DNA of 64,000 nt from Verrucomicrobiales bacterium (GTDB lineage: Bacteria > Verrucomicrobiota > Verrucomicrobiia > Verrucomicrobiales > Verrucomicrobiaceae): assembly GCA_038230495.1 (NCBI GenBank), contig JBBRNC010000008.1, positions 30,378-94,377 of the forward strand, read 5' to 3'. Shown in pieces: positions 33,242 through 47,142 of the stretch. The position numbers and the translations under genes were made by a program. The number at the start of each line of letters is the position of its first letter. Position 1 is the stretch's first letter. The notes under the pieces are model-generated. The model was given only the letters and a program-made list of their open reading frames with translations. It was not told the origin of the DNA and made no database searches.

Positions 33242-34309
33242 TCACTCGGGCTGAAAAAACAGCGTGAACTCGTGCCGGTTGTAAGTCAGGTGCGTCTGCG
33301 CGAACAACTTCAATCCACCGATGGCTGCTGCTCTTACGATTTCATCAAAAAGTTCCAGCGGTGCATGCACTGTTTCTATGCGCGGAATTTTCAGAGTGAA
33401 AATAACCAGCCCATTCTTCTTCAAAAATACTGACAGCCTGATGACCTGATTGATTGATTCGTGAGGGTCGCCATTCATGTCTGAAAGCAACGCATCATAT
33501 TTCGCGCCCGTCTCTGGTTGAAATTCCGCCACGTTACCACGCACAAATTTTAGCCCGCGCTGATTATGCAGCCGAGCATCTAAAACCGCTACATCTAGCG
33601 CCGTCACGCGCTGTCCCCGCGCCAGCAATTCCGCCGTCATCCCACCGGGACTCGCTCCAAGCTCCAGCCAGTGACTGCCCGCAGGCAGCGGCATGCGATA
33701 CAGTAAAAGATAATGCAAGGCCTCGGCGATCTTCGCCCCGGCGCGACTGATAAGATCAGGCGATTCCACGCCGATGTATTTGCTCCCTCCGGCATAGAAG
33801 CCGTTGGCTGCGCGAGGACTTTGCATACCGCAGAACAATCCTTCCTTACCTACGAGACAGAACAACGTCTCCGCCTCAGGATTCTGCTGCTCCACCTCCT
33901 TCACTCGCAGAGGCGGAAAAAGTTGGAGCACGCGACCGCGCAGATTCGTGGCCAGACTTTTGTAGTAACGATCCGGCGATCCCGCATTGATCTGGCCGAC
34001 GAGAATCGTCTGCGGATTCCGCACCCCGAATTTCTTGAACAATGTCTGCGCCGCCTTCTCGACGAAGCCTTCCATCTTCTGAGGATTGCAGGGCCACGCG
34101 TGTTCTAATGGCAGGTTCCAGCGGACAAATTTCGCTGCGCCCGAGTGCCTCACAGCCTCGGTCTGCTGCGTCTTGATCAAATAATATTCGTTGCCCAGCT
34201 TAGTGCAAATTTGCGCATGGAAGCGTTGCAGAATCTCATCCGCGATGCCTGAAAAAATCTCCGGGATGCGCACTAGCCACGCGACCACATTGTTCTGATC
34301 TGCATTCAT
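33242..34309 (-). CDS. rlmM: RlmM-like 23S rRNA 2'-O-ribose methyltransferase (THUMP-like N-domain plus FtsJ-like MTase)
   Basis: SAM motif LELGASPGGMT, catalytic region DMNGDP, 355 aa; 4-bp overlap with the upstream LRR-kinase gene. Confidence 0.6.
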   Translation of the reverse strand: MNADQNNVVAWLVRIPEIFSGIADEILQRFHAQICTKLGNEYYLIKTQQTEAVRHSGAAKFVRWNLPLEHAWPCNPQKMEGFVEKAAQTLFKKFGVRNPQTILVGQINAGSPDRYYKSLATNLRGRVLQLFPPLRVKEVEQQNPEAETLFCLVGKEGLFCGMQSPRAANGFYAGGSKYIGVESPDLISRAGAKIAEALHYLLLYRMPLPAGSHWLELGASPGGMTAELLARGQRVTALDVAVLDARLHNQRGLKFVRGNVAEFQPETGAKYDALLSDMNGDPHESINQVIRLSVFLKKNGLVIFTLKIPRIETVHAPLELFDEIVRAAAIGGLKLFAQTHLTYNRHEFTLFFQPE

Positions 34310-35640
34310 AGCGTTATTTTCACAAGCCGCGCGAGTTCCGATTCAATCTCCGCAAACAAAGGCCGCGCTGACACCTCTGCCGCAATGCAGCGCGCTTGCA
34401 AGGCCCGCAATCCATCCATGACCGGCTTTTGTGCTGGCTCCAATACCACGCGATCCAATAACTCTTCCAGCAGACATGCAAACGCGCGGACTTCGATTCG
34501 TTGCAACGCGGATGACGCCCGGTTCTCCATCGCTGAATAGAATGAGGCCGCGCCGAAGTCACCCAAGAGACAGTGCCCGTCTTCATGCCACAACACATTA
34601 TGCGCGTAGAGATCGCCGTGCATGATGCCCCGCACATGAAGCCGTTGCGCCGCAGAAGCAATACCACGCGCGATACGAAACGATACGGAGAGGGTAAAGT
34701 TTTGATCTTCCGCATAAAGATCGCGCGTGCACGAATCAAAATCTGGCGGCCCGGCGAGTGTGCGGAATTCGGGTTCAATCAATGACATCACTAGCCCTTC
34801 GCTTCGCATCGGATGATTCACGATGCGCCCCATCACCTCGATCAAATTTGGATGCGCACCGGCAGCGAGACACGCGGCCATTTCGCTAGCAGGCAGTCCG
34901 TCACTGGTGACTGCGCCTTTGAAAACCTTCACTGCCACCGATTGCGACACATCACCGCTCGCTGATCGCCAAGACGCACGATGAATCACGCCCGAGGCTC
35001 CCTCGCCGAGTTGCTCATGCAACTCAATCTGCGCCCAATCAATCTCCGCCATCACGTCTGAATCATTATCCAACGCGTTCGCACAAGGATTGCCCGCCAG
35101 TGCCAGCCATGACAACTTCGGCAGCGAAAGCAGCCACTCCGGCAAGGCGCGGAGATTGTTAGCCGCCAGCCGGATGAGTTCCAGATTCTTGCACGCCGCC
35201 ATCTCCACAGGTAGCTCGTCGAGTTGATTGCCAGCGAGCATCAGCTTCTGCAACCGAGTGCAGCGCCCGATGGTCGGCGGCAACTTGCGGATTCGATTGT
35301 CCGTGAGACTCAGCCAGCGCAAAGCCGGAGAAAACGCGCCCTCATCCACGGAATCAATGCGGTTTGATTTGAAACCGATCATGCTCAGATTCTCGCAATC
35401 GCTGAGCACGGCGGGAAGATGAGTAAAGTCGTTCGATGAACAAAAGAGGATGCGCAACTTGCGCAGTCGGCCCAGATCATCCGGCAGTGTGGAGAGCCGG
35501 TTGTTCGTCAGACTGAGAACCTCCAGCGAATCCGCCAGATCAAAAATCTCTCGCGGAAACTCCGTTAGCCCGCAGGCCAGTTCCAGCCGAGTCGCCCCGG
35601 CCAGCTTTCCGGCGCGCAATAATTCAAGAGTGTCCATCAT
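34306..35640 (-). CDS. Leucine-rich-repeat protein fused to a eukaryotic-like Ser/Thr protein kinase domain
   Basis: About 7 LRRs (LxxLxLxxNxL: LEVLSLTNNRLSTLP, LRILFCSSNDFTHLP, LRWLSLTDNRIRKLP...) then a kinase with GEGASG loop, VAVKVFK lysine, HGDLYAHNVLW catalytic loop and LGDFGAA. Confidence 0.75.
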   Translation of the reverse strand: MMDTLELLRAGKLAGATRLELACGLTEFPREIFDLADSLEVLSLTNNRLSTLPDDLGRLRKLRILFCSSNDFTHLPAVLSDCENLSMIGFKSNRIDSVDEGAFSPALRWLSLTDNRIRKLPPTIGRCTRLQKLMLAGNQLDELPVEMAACKNLELIRLAANNLRALPEWLLSLPKLSWLALAGNPCANALDNDSDVMAEIDWAQIELHEQLGEGASGVIHRASWRSASGDVSQSVAVKVFKGAVTSDGLPASEMAACLAAGAHPNLIEVMGRIVNHPMRSEGLVMSLIEPEFRTLAGPPDFDSCTRDLYAEDQNFTLSVSFRIARGIASAAQRLHVRGIMHGDLYAHNVLWHEDGHCLLGDFGAASFYSAMENRASSALQRIEVRAFACLLEELLDRVVLEPAQKPVMDGLRALQARCIAAEVSARPLFAEIESELARLVKITL

Positions 35641-35674: not shown

Positions 35675-36397
35675 TTACGGACTCAGCCGCGAGCGCAACC
35701 AGCCGCCTTCCTTTCGCGAGAAGCTAAACCGATCATGCAGGCGGCTCGGTCTTCCCTGCCAGAATTCGATTTCATCAGGAGCGAGCACGTAGCCGCCCCA
35801 GTTCGGGGGGAGCGGGACTTGGCCTTCGGGAAATTTTTCGGTGAGTTCGCGCTCACGATTCTCCAGCCATGCGCGATCCGGGATGCGCTCGCTTTGTTCG
35901 CTAACCCACGCGCCGATCTGGCTGCCGTAAGGACGTGATTGAAAATAGGTGTCTGATTCTTCATGACTGAGACGGCTGACGATGCCGCGAACGCAGACCT
36001 GTCTTTCGCGTTCTTTCCAGAAGATGGTGAGCGCAGCCTTTGGGTTCGTCGCGAGTTCGCGGCCTTTGCGGCTGTTGTAATTCGTGAAGAAGGAGAAGCC
36101 GCGCGTGTCGAAGCCCTTCAGTAAAACTGTGCGACAAGATGGCTGGCCATCTGCGGAAACGGTTGCGAGCGTCATGGCGTTCGGTTCCACCAAGGCGGCT
36201 GCGATGGCGTCGTCGAGCCAAAGTTTGAAAAGCACGAAGGGATCACCGGGCAGCGTGGCCTCGTCGAGTGCACCTTTTTCGTAATTCAGGCGCAAGTCGG
36301 CGAGATTCGGTTTGCCAGAGGGCGATGCTGATGGATAGAAGACGGACACAAGACAAGGATGAAGGATGAAAGATGGAGGAGCAAGTAATCTAAGCAA
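35675..36397 (-). CDS. pdxH: Pyridoxamine 5'-phosphate oxidase
   Basis: FMN-binding split-barrel blocks and the conserved C-terminal [13 protein letters not shown] motif; exact start uncertain. Confidence 0.85.
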
Positions 36398-41086: not shown

Positions 41087-42427
41087 TTGACGCGCGAATT
41101 CAACTCCGCATCATCCAAAATCATGATAATCTGGAAAGGCCGTGGTCTATTAATTCTACTATTTGCTGCACTTGGCGCCATGGCCTTTGCCGCAGCGTTT
41201 AAAGCCATATCACATGGCCCCCTAAGCGAATGGAATACCGTCGCGGGTATGATTGGAGCAAGTGTCGGAATCTGGGTATGCGCCATGACAGTTTGTAAAC
41301 CTAACCAACAAACATTTCTCGATCCAGCAACGCGCAGTCCGATCGTTCTCAAGCGCACACATGACCTCTATTTTCTATCTGCTAGGAGTTGGGCGATCCT
41401 GATCAGCCTTGTTACAGTGGCCACCATTATGCTCACTTTAGCAGCGGTTTCGCCGCTGAATAAACCTGCTGAACCGTCATCTTTATCGGGCAAGACCACA
41501 TCTGAATTTACTAATGCCAATAGACTGATTGATATTTATAAAGACAAAGTCGCGCACGGCAACACAGCCGCAGCAGAGAGCCTCGCAGAAGTGTTTGCAA
41601 CGAATCTCTCCAGCCTGCGCGATGAAGCCATTAGTAAAGGCCGATCATCCTCCTTTTCGGCGACCAAGGGACGCTTTCTTACTTACTGTCACATCGCTGG
41701 TAATGGTGTGTGCTTCATGGTTCATGTGCCTGAACTGCGCAAATTTAAGACTGACGCAAAAGACGCTATCGCCCAGCTTGCCTGGATAGTCGCGAGTGCA
41801 GCCGCCAAAGAAATGAACCCTCCAGCAACTAGGATTGCGATAGGAATTCGTGGCGCGATTCTCTACGACCGCACATGGGTAGGGACTCCTGTGAAAGATA
41901 TTGATAATCCCGAGGCCACCATTCAGAGCCGCTCTAGCGATTCCGATGATGCTAAAAACTTGCTATCGGATTTCCTCGTTGAAATTGAGAAAAGAACTCC
42001 TCCAGTTTTGGAAACCACGCCAATATCTAGTCCTGGAAAGAAGAAACCAAAATTGGTGAAATCCAATTCTCCAACTTCAACTGTTGTCGAAACGGTTAAA
42101 ACTCCTGTCACCGCCGTTGTTGTTCCAACTCCTATTGCAACAACTGAGCCAAAGCCAACACCCGCAACCGCGCCGGAAGTCCCATCAATAACGCCACCTC
42201 CTGCACCGCCAATTCTACCCACCGCCGTCCGTGAATGGAATGACAGTGCGGGACGACCCTTGAAAGCGTCACTGGAACGATTCACTTCACCGGCTTGCGA
42301 CACGGCAGAATTCAAGCGAGAGGACGGTCAAGCGTTTCAAATTTCTGTCAGTAAATTTTCTCAGAAGGACCAGGATGACATCAATAAAATTGCTGAGAAG
42401 GTGAAGGCTGAGCAGAGCGGAAAGTAG
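41087..42427 (+). CDS. Membrane protein with Pro/Thr-rich linker and C-terminal SHD1-like module
   Basis: Several N-terminal TM helices, TPVTAVVVPTPIATTEPKPTPATAPEVP linker, C-terminal REWNDSAGRPLKASL...SKFSQKDQDDINKI; start uncertain. Confidence 0.45.
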   Translation: MTREFNSASSKIMIIWKGRGLLILLFAALGAMAFAAAFKAISHGPLSEWNTVAGMIGASVGIWVCAMTVCKPNQQTFLDPATRSPIVLKRTHDLYFLSARSWAILISLVTVATIMLTLAAVSPLNKPAEPSSLSGKTTSEFTNANRLIDIYKDKVAHGNTAAAESLAEVFATNLSSLRDEAISKGRSSSFSATKGRFLTYCHIAGNGVCFMVHVPELRKFKTDAKDAIAQLAWIVASAAAKEMNPPATRIAIGIRGAILYDRTWVGTPVKDIDNPEATIQSRSSDSDDAKNLLSDFLVEIEKRTPPVLETTPISSPGKKKPKLVKSNSPTSTVVETVKTPVTAVVVPTPIATTEPKPTPATAPEVPSITPPPAPPILPTAVREWNDSAGRPLKASLERFTSPACDTAEFKREDGQAFQISVSKFSQKDQDDINKIAEKVKAEQSGK

Positions 42428-42435
42428 AACCATTC

Positions 42436-43734
42436 TCAAAAGCTTTTCCACGCGCGAAAACACTCGACGAATCCGCTGGCGAAGTCCTGTGGTCTTGCGG
42501 TGATCCAGGTGGCGATCTGATCAGGCTTGAAGAATGCACCGCTCGCGATTTCATCGGGCGCGAAATTCATTGGGCCGTTGTGCTGTGCGCGATGAAGCTC
42601 GACGAACTCCCAGCCAGTTTTTTGGGTCGCAGGAATCTTCGCGATGCATTGCGTCTCAGCTTCGATGCCGAGTTCCTCTTTCAATTCCCGCACGGCTGCG
42701 GTCGCATAGTCCTCGCCCGCATCGAGATGACCGGCGGCGCTTGAGTCCCAAGCCAGCGGATGCACATCCTTCAAATGCGAGCGCTGTTGCAGCCAGAGTT
42801 CGCCGTGTTTGTTGAAGACAAAAATATGCACGGCGCGGTGAATGAGATTTTTTGCGTGGACTTCGCCTCGCGGAGCCTGGCCGGTAACTTCATTGAGTTC
42901 GTTCACCACATCAAACATCTCGCTGGCCTTCTGACCGCGATCTTCCTCATGCCGTCCTTCATAGTGTCGCGTGAGCTGAACCCACTCAGCGAGTGAAAGC
43001 TCCTCGGCGCGGAGCATGGGCGTCTTCCCAAGTTCGGCAAACAGCGGCTCCCATCCGTCGGGCGGCGGTGGCATAACATTTTTTAATTGCTTCCTTCTCT
43101 GGGAAAATGCCACACGCACGAGACGGTCGAAGACCTTGCGATCAAACACTGGCAGCGAGCCTGTGGCGCGCGGTGTGAGTCGAACGACGGCAGAATCCAC
43201 TCTCGGCCTAGGTTTGAACGCTTCCGGCGGCACTACACGCAGCACTTCGACATTCCAATGCTGTTGCACCAACAAGCTGAGTGCGCCGTAGCCATCCTGC
43301 CCGCACTGGGCAGCTAGCCGATCACACACTTCCTTTTGTAACATGAAGACCGCCTCGTTCACTGGTGTGGGCGAAGCTAGAAAGCGGCGCAGAATGGGCT
43401 GTCCCATTGAGTAGGGAAGATTGCCGATGACTTTCAGTCCTCCGAATCGAAAGAGTGGTCGCAAATCATAGCTCGTGGCGTCGCCATGCCAGACTTCTAC
43501 ATCGGCACGCCTGGAATACTCGACGTGCAAATTGTCGGCGAGAAAATTATCTTTCTCGATGAGCAACAACTTCTCACAACGGCCCACGAGATATTTCGTC
43601 AGCGCTCCCTGCCCCGGCCCGATCTCGATGACCAACGGTGCACCATCAGGCCGGATTTGATCCGCGATCCAGCGCGAGATGCTTTCATCGAGCAGGAAAT
43701 TCTGCCCGAGACTTTTCTTGTGAACAAATGACAT
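42436..43734 (-). CDS. rsmA: Fusion protein: 16S rRNA (adenine1518/1519-N6)-dimethyltransferase KsgA/RsmA plus C-terminal NUDIX hydrolase
   Basis: N-terminal LGQNFLLDESI and EIGPGQGALT SAM motif of KsgA; C-terminal NUDIX box GHLDAGEDYATAAVRELKEELGI; a single uninterrupted ORF; start set at MSFVHKK. Confidence 0.75.
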   Translation of the reverse strand: MSFVHKKSLGQNFLLDESISRWIADQIRPDGAPLVIEIGPGQGALTKYLVGRCEKLLLIEKDNFLADNLHVEYSRRADVEVWHGDATSYDLRPLFRFGGLKVIGNLPYSMGQPILRRFLASPTPVNEAVFMLQKEVCDRLAAQCGQDGYGALSLLVQQHWNVEVLRVVPPEAFKPRPRVDSAVVRLTPRATGSLPVFDRKVFDRLVRVAFSQRRKQLKNVMPPPPDGWEPLFAELGKTPMLRAEELSLAEWVQLTRHYEGRHEEDRGQKASEMFDVVNELNEVTGQAPRGEVHAKNLIHRAVHIFVFNKHGELWLQQRSHLKDVHPLAWDSSAAGHLDAGEDYATAAVRELKEELGIEAETQCIAKIPATQKTGWEFVELHRAQHNGPMNFAPDEIASGAFFKPDQIATWITARPQDFASGFVECFRAWKSF

Positions 43735-43816
43735 CGCGGAGACTCGCGCAGAGAAAGGCGTGAAGCAAATCCAGCGAGCAGGTAACGCCATACACGCGCT
43801 ACTATTTATACTCCAT

Positions 43817-46570
43817 TTATGAGATCAACTTCCGTGCTTCAGCGAGCGCGGCATCGACCTTCGCAACATCTTTACCACCGCCTCGCGCGAAGTCTGGTTT
43901 GCCGCCGCCTTTGCCACCGACAATGGGCGCAATGGCTTGGATGATCTTGCCGGCTTGCACCTTAGCTTGGTGCTCTTTTGAGACGGATGCAATCAAGGCG
44001 ACGTTGCTGCCGCCAGTGGTCGCGAGCACGACGATGCCGTTGAAGTTGCCTTTCAAGGCATCGCTCACGGCGACGGCGTAATCGGCATCGACATCGCCGA
44101 GATTCACGATGATGGCGTTGTTCTCGGCTTTGCTCAGGAGGTCTTTCGCTCGGCCTGCGGCTTCGCGTTGTTGCGCGGCCTTGAGCGTCTTCTCGAGTTC
44201 CTTCTGCTGCGTAAGGAGTTGATCGAGCTTCTTTTCGAGATCAGCCGCGCCTTGTGCACTCACTTTTCCAGCAAGAAGTTTTATCAACTCCGCATCGGCA
44301 CGCGCGGCGTTGTAGGCTTCGAGTCCGGCGATGGCTTCGATGCGGCGCACACCACTCGCGACGGCGCTTTCACTGACGAGGCGGAACAGGCCGATCTCAC
44401 CAGTGCTTCTCGTGTGAGTGCCGCCGCAGAGTTCCATGCTGTATCCATTGAGCTTGTGCGGCTGGCCGCCGATCTGCACGACGCGGACGAGGTCTCCATA
44501 CTTCTCGCCGAAGAGCGCCATGATGCCGGGATTGGCCTTGGCTTCGACGTAGGGGACTTCGCTCCAGGAAACAGATTCGTTGGCGACGACGCGTTCGTTA
44601 ACGAGACGCTCGATGTCGGCGATTTGCTGCGCGGTGAGTGCGGCACTGTTGAAGTCGAAGGTGAGCTTGTCGGGCGTGACGCTGGAGCCTTTCTGCGTGG
44701 CGTCCTTGTTCACCACTTCATGCAACGCCCAATGCAAGATGTGCGTGACAGTGTGGTGGCGCTCAATGGCGTGACGACGCGGCGCATCGACGAAGAGTTT
44801 CACCGTGGCATCGACGGCAGGAGCTTCATCACCTTCGAGGAAGTGCAGCCAGGTGTTGCCGACTTTGGTGGTGGCGCTGATCGGATAGGTGTTCGCGCCA
44901 AGGATGAGCTGGCCGCTGTCGCCGATCTGCCCGCCCATCTCGGCGTAGCAAGTGGAGACATCGAGCACGATAGCGGTCTTGTCCTTCATCTCGACGACCT
45001 CGAGCACTTTTACATCAGCTTCGAGCGTGTCGTAACCGATGAACTTGGTCGGCGCCTTGGTCTCGATTTCACTGACGGAGACGACTTGCTTGTTCTTCTT
45101 GCCGGCTTCGCGCGCCATGGCCTTTTGCTTCTCCATGAGTTCGTTGAAGCCATCGACATCAACTGTGAGACTGCGCTCGCGAGCCATGAGTTCAGTAAGG
45201 TCGAGCGGGAAACCTTGCTCGTCATAAAGTTTGAAGGCGAAAGCACCATCAATGGTTTTCCCAGAGTTGGCCGCATCTTCAAACAACGAGATGCCTTTAT
45301 CCAAGGTCCGATTGAAACTCTCCTCTTCCACCTTCAGCACCGCTTTGATCTGCTCCTTCTTCGTCCGCACTTCGGGGAACACATCGCCCATCTGCGTGGC
45401 GAGAACATCGACGAGCTTGTAGAAGAACGGTTCTTTGAACTCGAGCGTGCGGCCATACTTCACGGCGCGGCGGAGGATTCTTCTCAGGGTGTAGTTGCGG
45501 TCGGAGTTGCCGGGCTGGATGCCGTCGGCGATGGCGAAACTGAGGGTGCGCAGGTGGTCGGCGATGACGCGGAAGGCGACATCGATTTTCTCCTGCTCGG
45601 TCACGGGCACGACGTGGCCTTGCTCATTGGCCTTGGGCAGCGTGCTCGCATAGGTCTTGCCGCTGAGCTTGGTGAGTTCGTCAAAGATGGGTTTGAAGAC
45701 GTCGGTGTCGTAGTTGCTAATCTTCGTGTTCTCGAAGTCGGTGAAGTTCTTCGTGCCTTGGATGATGCTGCACACGCGCTCGAAGCCCATGCCGGTATCG
45801 ACGTGCTGCGCAGGCAGCGGGACGAAGCTGCCGTCGGGGTTGGCGTTGTATTGAATGAAGACGTTGTTCCAGATCTCGATGCAGCTCGCATCGCTGCCGT
45901 TGACCAACAGGGCACCAGCACGCTGGCGATCTTCATCGAGCGCGATGGGGCCGGGGGTGAGGTCGATGTGGATTTCAGTGCACGGGCCGCAGGGGCCGGT
46001 GTCGCCCATCATCCAGAAGTTGTCCTTCTTATTGCCGTTGACGATGTGGATGTCGGGATCGAGACCGATGCTGCGGAATTTTTCGGCCCACATGTCCCAA
46101 GCTTCCGTGTCACGCTCGGCGGGGTCGTTTGGACCGGGATGGTAGATGGTGGCGAACACGCGGGTCGGTGGGAACTTCCAGCGCTCGATGATGAGTTCCC
46201 AGGCCCAAGAGATGGCGTCTTTTTTGAAATAATCACCGAAGCTCCAGTTGCCGAGCATCTCGAAGAGCGTGTGGTGGTAGGTATCAAGGCCCACGTCTTC
46301 GAGGTCGTTGTGCTTGCCGCCAGCGCGAATGCATTTCTGTGTGTCCGCCGCGCGAGTCGGCAATCCTTTGTGCAAGACGCCGGGCCAGGTATCCACATCC
46401 GCACTGCGCTCGCCGAGGAAGATGGGCACGAACTGATTCATGCCTGCATTGGTGAAGATGCGCGCGCCATCGCGGCTGGTGTAGCCGACGTTGTCACTCG
46501 GGACGATGGTGTGTTGCTTCTCTTTGAAGAAGTCGAGGAAGCTTTGCCGGATTTGCGCGGAGGTCATCAT
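43817..46570 (-). CDS. alaS: Alanine--tRNA ligase
   Basis: Class II core, editing-domain HxxxH-CxxxH region (HTVTHILHWALHEV...CGGTH), C-terminal DHHA1; 917 aa. Confidence 0.95.
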   Translation of the reverse strand: MMTSAQIRQSFLDFFKEKQHTIVPSDNVGYTSRDGARIFTNAGMNQFVPIFLGERSADVDTWPGVLHKGLPTRAADTQKCIRAGGKHNDLEDVGLDTYHHTLFEMLGNWSFGDYFKKDAISWAWELIIERWKFPPTRVFATIYHPGPNDPAERDTEAWDMWAEKFRSIGLDPDIHIVNGNKKDNFWMMGDTGPCGPCTEIHIDLTPGPIALDEDRQRAGALLVNGSDASCIEIWNNVFIQYNANPDGSFVPLPAQHVDTGMGFERVCSIIQGTKNFTDFENTKISNYDTDVFKPIFDELTKLSGKTYASTLPKANEQGHVVPVTEQEKIDVAFRVIADHLRTLSFAIADGIQPGNSDRNYTLRRILRRAVKYGRTLEFKEPFFYKLVDVLATQMGDVFPEVRTKKEQIKAVLKVEEESFNRTLDKGISLFEDAANSGKTIDGAFAFKLYDEQGFPLDLTELMARERSLTVDVDGFNELMEKQKAMAREAGKKNKQVVSVSEIETKAPTKFIGYDTLEADVKVLEVVEMKDKTAIVLDVSTCYAEMGGQIGDSGQLILGANTYPISATTKVGNTWLHFLEGDEAPAVDATVKLFVDAPRRHAIERHHTVTHILHWALHEVVNKDATQKGSSVTPDKLTFDFNSAALTAQQIADIERLVNERVVANESVSWSEVPYVEAKANPGIMALFGEKYGDLVRVVQIGGQPHKLNGYSMELCGGTHTRSTGEIGLFRLVSESAVASGVRRIEAIAGLEAYNAARADAELIKLLAGKVSAQGAADLEKKLDQLLTQQKELEKTLKAAQQREAAGRAKDLLSKAENNAIIVNLGDVDADYAVAVSDALKGNFNGIVVLATTGGSNVALIASVSKEHQAKVQAGKIIQAIAPIVGGKGGGKPDFARGGGKDVAKVDAALAEARKLIS

Positions 46571-46732
46571 GGGGCGGGCATTGAAAACCAGAATGCGCGG
46601 GTGCTCAAGGCATTGTTCTTGCTTGTGAAGGTTGCTTGGAGCAGTAAGATCGAATCATGCTGCTGGCATTCAAGATGCTGGAAACTCTCCAACGAATCGA
46701 AGCTAAACAAAAATAACCTGCATAATAAAACT

Positions 46733-47142
46733 ATGAGCACACTAGAAGACCAATCCAATCAGAGCGCACCGTCCACCCCTCCTGCGGTATCAACCGGAGG
46801 CAGCTTGAGTAAGAATGAGCAGAACATGGGAATGCTGTGTCACCTTCTGGCACTGTCGGGTTTCCTCATCCCCTCGGCAATCTCATTGGTCCGCTTGTCT
46901 TGTGGTTGGTGAAAAAGGAGGAGATGCCCTTCGTCGATAGCCAAGGTAAGGAGTCGCTGAACTTTCAGATCACGACCTCGATCTTTGCTGTTGTAGGATT
47001 TTTACTGTGCTTTGTCCTCATCGGATTTCTGGTTCTGCCTCTGGTTCTGATTTTCGATCTCGTCTGTGTCATTCTTGCTTCCATCGAGACATCCAATGGC
47101 AAGCCCTATCGTTATCCGTTCTGCATTCGCCTTATCAAATAA
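46733..47142 (+). pseudogene. DUF4870-family small membrane protein gene split by a -1 frameshift
   Basis: Frame-2 ORF MSTLEDQ...MLCHLLALSGFLIPS... ends at 46912; frame-1 continuation ...PLGNLIGPLVLWLVKKEEMPFVDSQGKE... matches the contiguous DUF4870 consensus; shift lies near a CCCC run at about 46871. Confidence 0.5.

Follow-up and report, generated by a model that had tools for sequence, protein, structure and literature searches.

A conserved fusion of the rRNA dimethyltransferase KsgA to a C-terminal NUDIX domain in Verrucomicrobiota

The window analyzed here is a 64,000-nucleotide stretch of contig JBBRNC010000008.1 from a Verrucomicrobiales bacterium, and its minus strand carries, at 42436..43734, one uninterrupted open reading frame (ORF) of 432 codons plus a stop codon, in which a KsgA/RsmA domain is followed by a short linker and a NUDIX domain (Table 1). 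An earlier in-frame ATG at 43791 would lengthen the gene to 42436..43791 and its product to 451 amino acids (19 additional residues); we favor the start at 43734, since the nearest homologs begin at the equivalent site in an alignment of 15 homologs. An earlier note on this DNA had claimed a 432-amino-acid in-frame fusion of KsgA and NUDIX, with the junction at 42880..42960, directly upstream of alaS. The fusion itself holds: both domains are complete (Pfam, TIGR00755), a Pfam scan placed RrnaAD and NUDIX each well above its gathering score, the motifs LGQNFL (aa 9-14) and EIGPGQGALT (aa 37-46) and the NUDIX box all lie where they had been placed, and the proposed junction agrees with the linker that we delimited. 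The relationship to alaS has to be reversed, however, because alaS (43817..46570) is likewise encoded on the minus strand, with its end 82 bp ahead of the fusion start codon, so that the fusion gene sits directly downstream of it. A scan for promoters and terminators around the fusion gene gave nothing above shuffle expectation.

Table 1. Features of the KsgA-NUDIX fusion gene in the window
Feature	Position	Strand	Details
Whole KsgA-NUDIX fusion gene	42436..43734	minus	ATG at 43734 ('MSFVHKK'); stop codon at 42436..42438
KsgA/RsmA domain, aa 4-256	42967..43725	minus	TIGR00755, Pfam RrnaAD
Linker HYEGRHEEDRGQKASE, aa 257-272	42919..42966	minus	~16 residues
NUDIX domain, YfcD / DR_0079 / IDI clade, aa 273-432	42439..42918	minus	160 residues
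NUDIX box GHLDAGEDYATAAVRELKEELGI, aa 335-357	42664..42732	minus	fits GX5EX7REUXEEXGU exactly
Span with equivalents of the IDI-type metal ligands (His293, His299, His336, Glu376)	42604..42864	minus	profile alignment

KsgA belongs to the very small set of rRNA-modification enzymes that are conserved throughout life. It binds to pre-30S particles at a late stage and, with S-adenosylmethionine (SAM), dimethylates A1518 and A1519 of 16S rRNA, and it is usually regarded as a single-function, stand-alone assembly checkpoint. The N-terminal half of the fused protein scored 222.4 bits with NCBIfam TIGR00755 (ksgA; cutoff, 171) over profile positions 2-254 of 256 and matched Pfam RrnaAD over aa 5-221 (E = 5.8e-50); an Erm identity was rejected, the Erm model remaining below threshold (147 vs a cutoff of 212). 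SAM-binding motif I, acidic motif II, and the catalytic N-L-P-Y motif IV are all present, IEKD lying at aa 59-62 and GNLPY at aa 104-108, and among 44 homologs EIGPGxGxLT, IEKD, GDA, GNLPY, and QRRK are invariant, the last of these being a patch in the C-terminal domain of the KsgA half. This half has the two-domain fold of a SAM-binding Rossmann domain followed by a C-terminal helical RNA-binding domain; it aligns to residues 11-262 of the 273-residue Escherichia coli KsgA and gives Foldseek target-normalized TM scores of 0.86-0.90 against the solved KsgA structures 3TPZ, 1QYR, and 7O5H.

The C-terminal half has the alpha/beta/alpha NUDIX fold and passes the Pfam NUDIX profile over aa 299-408 (E = 5.6e-18; 65.7 bits vs a gathering score of 21.1). 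The G, E, RE, and EE of the NUDIX box do not vary among 18 divergent fusions or among 40 relatives that are either stand-alone or fused, and His293, His299, His336, Glu376, and His303 are invariant among relatives. The nearest solved proteins by sequence are DR_0079 (E = 4.8e-16) and E. coli YfcD (E = 1.9e-15), followed by the type 1 isopentenyl diphosphate (IPP) isomerases (IDI), and by such similarity the NUDIX half is a member of the YfcD / DR_0079 / IPP-isomerase clade. The family profile aligns His293, His299, His336, and Glu376 with the metal ligands H25, H32, H69, and E116 of Salmonella and E. coli IDI, and IDI E114 falls inside an insertion in this alignment (IDI residues in E. coli numbering).

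The position of the IDI catalytic Cys67 is occupied by Ala in the NUDIX half (SAAGH vs SVCGH); this substitution, together with IDI models that stayed below their cutoffs (57.1 vs 105.8 and 76.4 vs 127; TIGR02150 / PRK03759), led us to reject IPP isomerase as its identity. YfcD orthology was rejected as well (NF011922, 81.2 bits vs an equivalog cutoff of 152) in favor of a related subfamily, as was an RppH/decapping type (PRK00714, 33.4 bits vs a cutoff of 116). A Tyr 16-18 residues or a Pro 16 residues past the NUDIX box reportedly marks the ApnA / ADP-ribose subfamilies (the rules of Dunn et al. 1999); here, T-G-W occupies residues 373-375 and the Pro nearest to the box is 11 residues downstream of it, so that neither signature is present. 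Because the NUDIX box is intact and Cys67 is replaced by Ala, hydrolysis rather than isomerization is the predicted reaction; with its canonical box and an IDI-like extra metal site, the NUDIX half should be a hydrolase and is unlikely to be an isomerase.

The whole chain, modeled with AlphaFold2 from a 44-sequence alignment, gave a pLDDT of 91.6 and a pTM of 0.88, and the NUDIX domain modeled alone gave a pTM of 0.87. The linker, which is well conserved within the Verrucomicrobiaceae and variable in Chthoniobacterales-type and more distant fusions, has a pLDDT of ~74, the lowest outside the N terminus. Because the pTM of the whole chain is as high as that of the NUDIX domain alone, the two lobes appear to be fixed relative to one another, and this summary score suggests a compact two-lobed protein in which the NUDIX domain packs rigidly on KsgA. 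Foldseek found no solved structure that spans both halves, every PDB match having a query-normalized TM score of ~0.53.

The fusion recurs widely among related genomes. The best 120 homologs in a collection of 5.8 billion proteins, which reach down to 62% identity, are 425-475 amino acids long and carry both Pfam domains without exception (120/120); the assemblies behind them are from NCBI, JGI, ENA, and Logan, and cultured Prosthecobacter and Phragmitibacter are among the organisms represented. When the NUDIX domain alone was used as the query against 1.84 billion 50%-identity representatives, 32 of the best 150 matches had an N-terminal KsgA, ~23 of them being full length. A one-genome-per-species scan with the family motif WDSSA[AS]GH[LV] gave at least 600 matches, of which the best 80 loci were analyzed; these include Verrucomicrobiaceae, Prosthecobacter, Phragmitibacter, Brevifollis, Rubritalea, Akkermansiaceae, and Chthoniobacterales/'Spartobacteria', and all are labeled Verrucomicrobiota except L046 (an Alphaproteobacteria metagenome-assembled genome [MAG]) and L024 ('uncultured bacterium'). 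KsgA and NUDIX share a single uninterrupted frame in 78/80 of these loci, with KsgA identity falling to ~42%, which establishes that they are fused rather than two genes; such a fusion is unusual for KsgA, which the earlier note describes as normally a stand-alone protein of ~270 amino acids. In the two exceptions, L046 and L074, pieces of KsgA fall in other frames. Both bear MFD isolate names, which we take to denote long-read bins (MAGs) prone to indel errors, and such errors are therefore the likely explanation of the split frames.

Purifying selection is strong on both halves: in comparison with the two closest loci, dN/dS comes to 0.05 for KsgA and to 0.06-0.07 for NUDIX. In 69 of the 78 loci, the NUDIX half is the more conserved of the two (58% vs 46% identity among the distant loci). 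In a neighbor-joining tree, which is rough and poorly resolved, 25 of 30 fused NUDIX domains fall into one clade along with a few short, probably truncated, sequences, and the other five are scattered. Since the single frame recurs across genomes and both halves are under purifying selection, we concluded that the fusion is real, old, and maintained, being conserved over at least two orders of Verrucomicrobiota.

The surroundings of the gene are far more variable. Adjacency to alaS is absent from the related loci (0/80), glmS was found in 2/80 and the convergent ORF in 1/80, and all-against-all clustering of the flanking ORFs gave no family present in more than 17 of the 80 loci; because neighbors are not conserved across these loci, operon context gives no functional clue. 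The closest stand-alone homologs of the NUDIX half (~170-190 amino acids, 45-50% identical) belong to the Opitutales (Nibricoccus aquaticus, Opitutaceae, Puniceicoccaceae, Didemnitutus) and are often labeled 'IPP isomerase' by JGI. We inspected five stand-alone homologs in four distinct neighborhoods, three of the five being named Opitutales by their sources, and ksgA adjoined none of them; as a consequence, an operon that survived from before the fusion is improbable, and probably no such operon preceded it. A gene for an RlmJ-type (PF04378) m6A rRNA methyltransferase is located ~2 kb from the stand-alone homolog at three Opitutaceae loci, and in another lineage the homolog is found near genes for purine nucleoside phosphorylase and adenine deaminase. 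Other members of this NUDIX subfamily occur as tandem duplicates or are joined to different proteins, namely Qng1/Q_salvage (twice), IspD, phosphomevalonate kinase, PlsY, GDPD, DUF374, a BadF+SIS protein, and WD40 repeats. That it has been joined to so many unrelated partners suggests that the subfamily is a promiscuous, portable 'add-on' module.

Taken together, these results make it highly probable that the gene encodes a real, conserved, bifunctional KsgA-NUDIX enzyme, any single guess at the NUDIX substrate being tentative at best. As predicted from sequence, the N-terminal 256 residues would act as the housekeeping KsgA/RsmA that dimethylates A1518/A1519 on the late pre-30S particle, and the ~16-residue linker would lead into a catalytically competent NUDIX pyrophosphohydrolase. 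In the model, the NUDIX lobe may pack against KsgA to form a compact two-lobed enzyme. The NUDIX lobe would most likely hydrolyze a small diphosphate-containing metabolite, candidates being the di- or triphosphate of a nucleoside (modified or pyrimidine), by analogy with DR_0079, or an IPP-like compound, as the IDI-type metal site might indicate; RNA 5' caps are an unlikely substrate. Of the coupling that the earlier note suggested, between a ribosome-biogenesis checkpoint enzyme and nucleotide or cap-like hydrolysis, the nucleotide version may hold and the cap-like one is improbable. The fusion would thereby tie a housecleaning activity stoichiometrically, and probably spatially, to maturation of the small subunit, a coupling that we infer. 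Several points count against this proposal. The His triad, invariant in the fused NUDIX domains, is missing from DR_0079 and YfcD; the stand-alone homologs do not lie beside ksgA and the fusion gene has no conserved neighbors, so that the genomes offer no independent support for a functional link; and the NUDIX subfamily has been joined to many unrelated partners.

The housecleaning activity need not be tied to the ribosome at all. Two unrelated housekeeping genes may have become joined in a single event, in an ancestor shared by Verrucomicrobiales and Chthoniobacterales, with the domains working independently and the fusion, either neutral or merely a means of co-regulation, persisting because it is harmless, and we regard this as possible, if somewhat doubtful. 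It fits well with Opitutales stand-alone homologs that are unlinked to ksgA, with the many unrelated partners of the NUDIX subfamily, and with the lack of a conserved gene neighborhood. It fits less well, although not decisively so, with the retention of the join in 78/80 genomes over a divergence deep enough to bring KsgA identity to ~42%; the short linker and high pTM, which suggest a fixed interface in the model, and the greater conservation of the NUDIX half than of KsgA point the same way but are not decisive either.

At the other extreme, the NUDIX lobe could be mechanistically coupled to KsgA at the nascent 30S subunit, where it might either clear N6-methylated adenine nucleotides set free by rRNA turnover, tidying up after the modification that KsgA makes, or hydrolyze a signaling nucleotide of the Ap4A/ppGpp kind at the assembly checkpoint. 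We consider coupling of this sort unlikely. If true, the signaling version would be a covalent counterpart of the proteobacterial ksgA-apaH operon (ApaH itself is not a NUDIX protein), and either version would reveal a conserved, unrecognized link between the KsgA checkpoint and control of the nucleotide pool.

An equally improbable reading makes the NUDIX lobe an isoprenoid-diphosphate hydrolase that acts on IPP, dimethylallyl diphosphate (DMAPP), or a related small diphosphate, echoing the widespread linkage of ksgA to ispE. Its kinship with IDI, the conserved IDI-type metal site, the joining of the subfamily to IspD and to phosphomevalonate kinase, and the ksgA-ispE operon of Actinobacteria (PMC6009663) all speak for such a substrate. 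However, the IDI models fall below their cutoffs (76 vs 127; 57 vs 105.8), the two fusions are single representatives, and no benefit of such an activity to KsgA is known.

Clearance of methylated nucleotides, considered as a reading in its own right, would have the NUDIX lobe remove N6-methylated adenine nucleotides (m6ATP, m6,2ATP, and their dNTP forms), or other modified nucleotides from rRNA, that are produced when rRNA is turned over and its nucleotides are re-phosphorylated, thereby blocking their re-incorporation. KsgA, the fusion partner, makes m6,2A; Qng1/Q_salvage, to which the same subfamily is fused, is a salvager of a modified nucleotide; and the RlmJ-type gene at the three Opitutaceae loci and the purine nucleoside phosphorylase and adenine deaminase genes of the other lineage are of a kindred nature. 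There are precedents both for the chemistry, the NUDIX enzyme MTH1 acting on and clearing N6-methyl-dATP (PMC7152754), and for the genetic arrangement, in the rluE-nudJ operon of E. coli (PMC3384335). These associations are all weak, however: the three Opitutaceae loci are syntenic and amount to one observation, with other genes intervening, fusions to IspD, phosphomevalonate kinase, PlsY, and GDPD do not agree with this reading, and no residue-level sign of adenine recognition was seen. We therefore hold this reading to be distinctly unlikely.

NUDIX domains are known to act as sensors, as in NrtR, and as a recognition domain, as in MutY. By analogy, the fused domain might be non-catalytic and instead sense a ligand or serve for docking, thereby governing the binding of KsgA to the 30S subunit or its release from it, but the NUDIX-box residues (REx2EE, Gx5E) and the further metal ligands are invariant in fused and stand-alone proteins alike, as is typical of active hydrolases, and this makes such a role very unlikely. 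The chance that two adjacent genes were merged by an assembly or sequencing error (a missing stop codon or a frameshift) is negligible, and we rejected it: although L046 and L074 (2/80) show the KsgA part in other frames, the remaining 78 of 80 independent assemblies and all of the best 120 homologs share a single frame, and the junction has no room for a second start codon or ribosome-binding site, because the linker is only 16 residues long and is conserved.

The preferred reading, a bifunctional KsgA-NUDIX enzyme, thus concerns a conserved KsgA architecture with an uncharacterized NUDIX subtype, and the evidence does not indicate a new mechanism. Both halves are ordinary members of known families, and their joint architecture is already recorded in public databases with Pfam annotation of each domain and the simple product name 'RsmA', but it is apparently undescribed; the portions of the literature on KsgA with Nudix domains that were available to us contained no mention of a KsgA-NUDIX fusion. 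A fusion to an intact pyrophosphohydrolase that is kept across a whole bacterial class, with selection on it as strong as that on KsgA, is a natural 'Rosetta stone' and suggests an unrecognized partner activity for KsgA. It offers a handle both on the repeated linkage of ksgA to nucleotide and diphosphate genes (apaH, ispE) and on the role of the uncharacterized YfcD-like NUDIX clade. Even if the join serves co-expression alone, it raises an annotation issue, a second enzyme being hidden in thousands of 'RsmA' entries.

Set beside known systems, the KsgA half is closest to KsgA/RsmA (E. coli KsgA, PDB 1QYR/7O5H); it is ~35% identical to solved KsgA structures and retains every SAM-binding and catalytic motif as well as the C-terminal RNA-binding domain. 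Canonical KsgA occurs on its own, with ~250-290 amino acids, whereas the fused protein has 432, the last ~11 residues of the E. coli enzyme being replaced here by the linker and the 160-residue NUDIX domain. Among relatives of the NUDIX half, YfcD (PDB 2FKB) is an uncharacterized NUDIX hydrolase that carries no KsgA fusion in E. coli and has only one of the four invariant His residues of the fused domain. Type 1 IDI (PDB 1HX3, 3HYQ) differs in having a degenerate NUDIX box, which is intact in the fused domain, and resembles it in that its metal-site His and Glu ligands have aligned invariant counterparts there. DR_0079 (PDB 1Q27/2O5F), the best sequence match among solved structures, is a stand-alone protein that has no His triad and whose NUDIX box carries Asn in place of the final Gly (PMC5389931). 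We found no other biochemically characterized hydrolase for the YfcD / DR_0079 / IDI clade, and the Deinococcus radiodurans protein is stated to prefer CDP/CTP in the title of Buchko et al. 2008, as quoted in PMC5389931. The sister family acts on IPP.

At the level of gene organization, the ksgA-apaG-apaH and rluE-nudJ operons of E. coli each link an rRNA-modification enzyme to a nucleotide pyrophosphatase (PMC3384335), and the actinobacterial rpfB-ksgA-ispE operon links ksgA to an isoprenoid-pathway gene (PMC6009663). The ksgA-apaG-apaH operon shows that an unexplained connection of KsgA with a nucleotide pyrophosphatase is not unique to the lineage studied here. In all of these operons, however, the partners are separate genes, whereas the fusion described here joins them covalently and with a different NUDIX subfamily.

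The closest relatives are related loci L001 and L002 (~91% amino acid identity), and both retain synteny with the window downstream of the KsgA-NUDIX fusion, L001 having glmS and L002 a homolog of the convergent 446-aa ORF. Upstream of the fusion gene, where the window has alaS, neither L001 nor L002 carries it, and because this adjacency is missing even in such close relatives, we take the arrangement to suggest a recent rearrangement beside the fusion gene. The 446-aa ORF has a central region rich in Pro and Thr, gave no match in a Pfam search, and among the related loci has a homolog only at L002. The 914-aa ORF opposite alaS is most likely not itself a gene but a shadow ORF, of the kind that accompanies a gene whose codon usage is strongly biased.

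Features near the KsgA-NUDIX fusion gene and in related loci
Feature	Location	Strand	Remark
FtsJ-like methyltransferase ORF	window 33242..34309	-	6-9 kb from fusion gene (range joint with PdxH)
Leucine-rich repeats + Ser/Thr protein kinase domain, one protein	window 34306..35640	-	
PdxH (pyridoxamine-5'-phosphate oxidase)	window 35675..36397	-	6-9 kb from fusion gene (range joint with FtsJ-like ORF)
446-aa ORF	window 41087..42427	+	convergent with fusion gene; stop codons 8 bp apart
914-aa ORF	window 44168..46912	+	antisense to alaS (43817..46570, -) over whole alaS length
Split fusion	L046 2228..3495		
Split fusion	L074 2213..3480		
PF04378/stand-alone NUDIX neighbourhood	L081 8754..9644		
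PF04378/stand-alone NUDIX neighbourhood	L086 8023..8898		
PF04378/stand-alone NUDIX neighbourhood	L087 4137..5012		

In two related MAGs, both with MFD isolate names (L046 and L074), the KsgA part of the fusion is broken across two or three reading frames. Indel errors probably account for the split frames; possibly, these fusions are pseudogenes.

The YfcD/IDI-like NUDIX subfamily also has other partners. Metagenomic representatives are fused to Qng1/Q_salvage, IspD, PlsY, GDPD, DUF374, a BadF+SIS (MurQ-like) protein, or WD40 repeats, and a phosphomevalonate kinase fusion carries two NUDIX copies (non-KsgA fusions: P0130, P0208, P0247, P0260, P0229, P0168, P0209, P0200, and P0198). Tandem double-NUDIX proteins of ~330 aa are many. 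In Opitutaceae, a gene for a PF04378 (RlmJ-type, m6A-forming) rRNA methyltransferase lies ~2-3 kb from the stand-alone NUDIX homolog, with Metallophos and DUF386 genes in between; as the three loci are syntenic, this proximity is effectively a single observation.

Elsewhere in the window, one protein joins leucine-rich repeats to a Ser/Thr kinase domain, a eukaryote-like combination that is atypical of bacteria yet recurrent in the PVC group. Although E. coli has a pdxA-ksgA operon, the nearness of PdxH and the FtsJ-like ORF to the fusion gene is probably coincidental.
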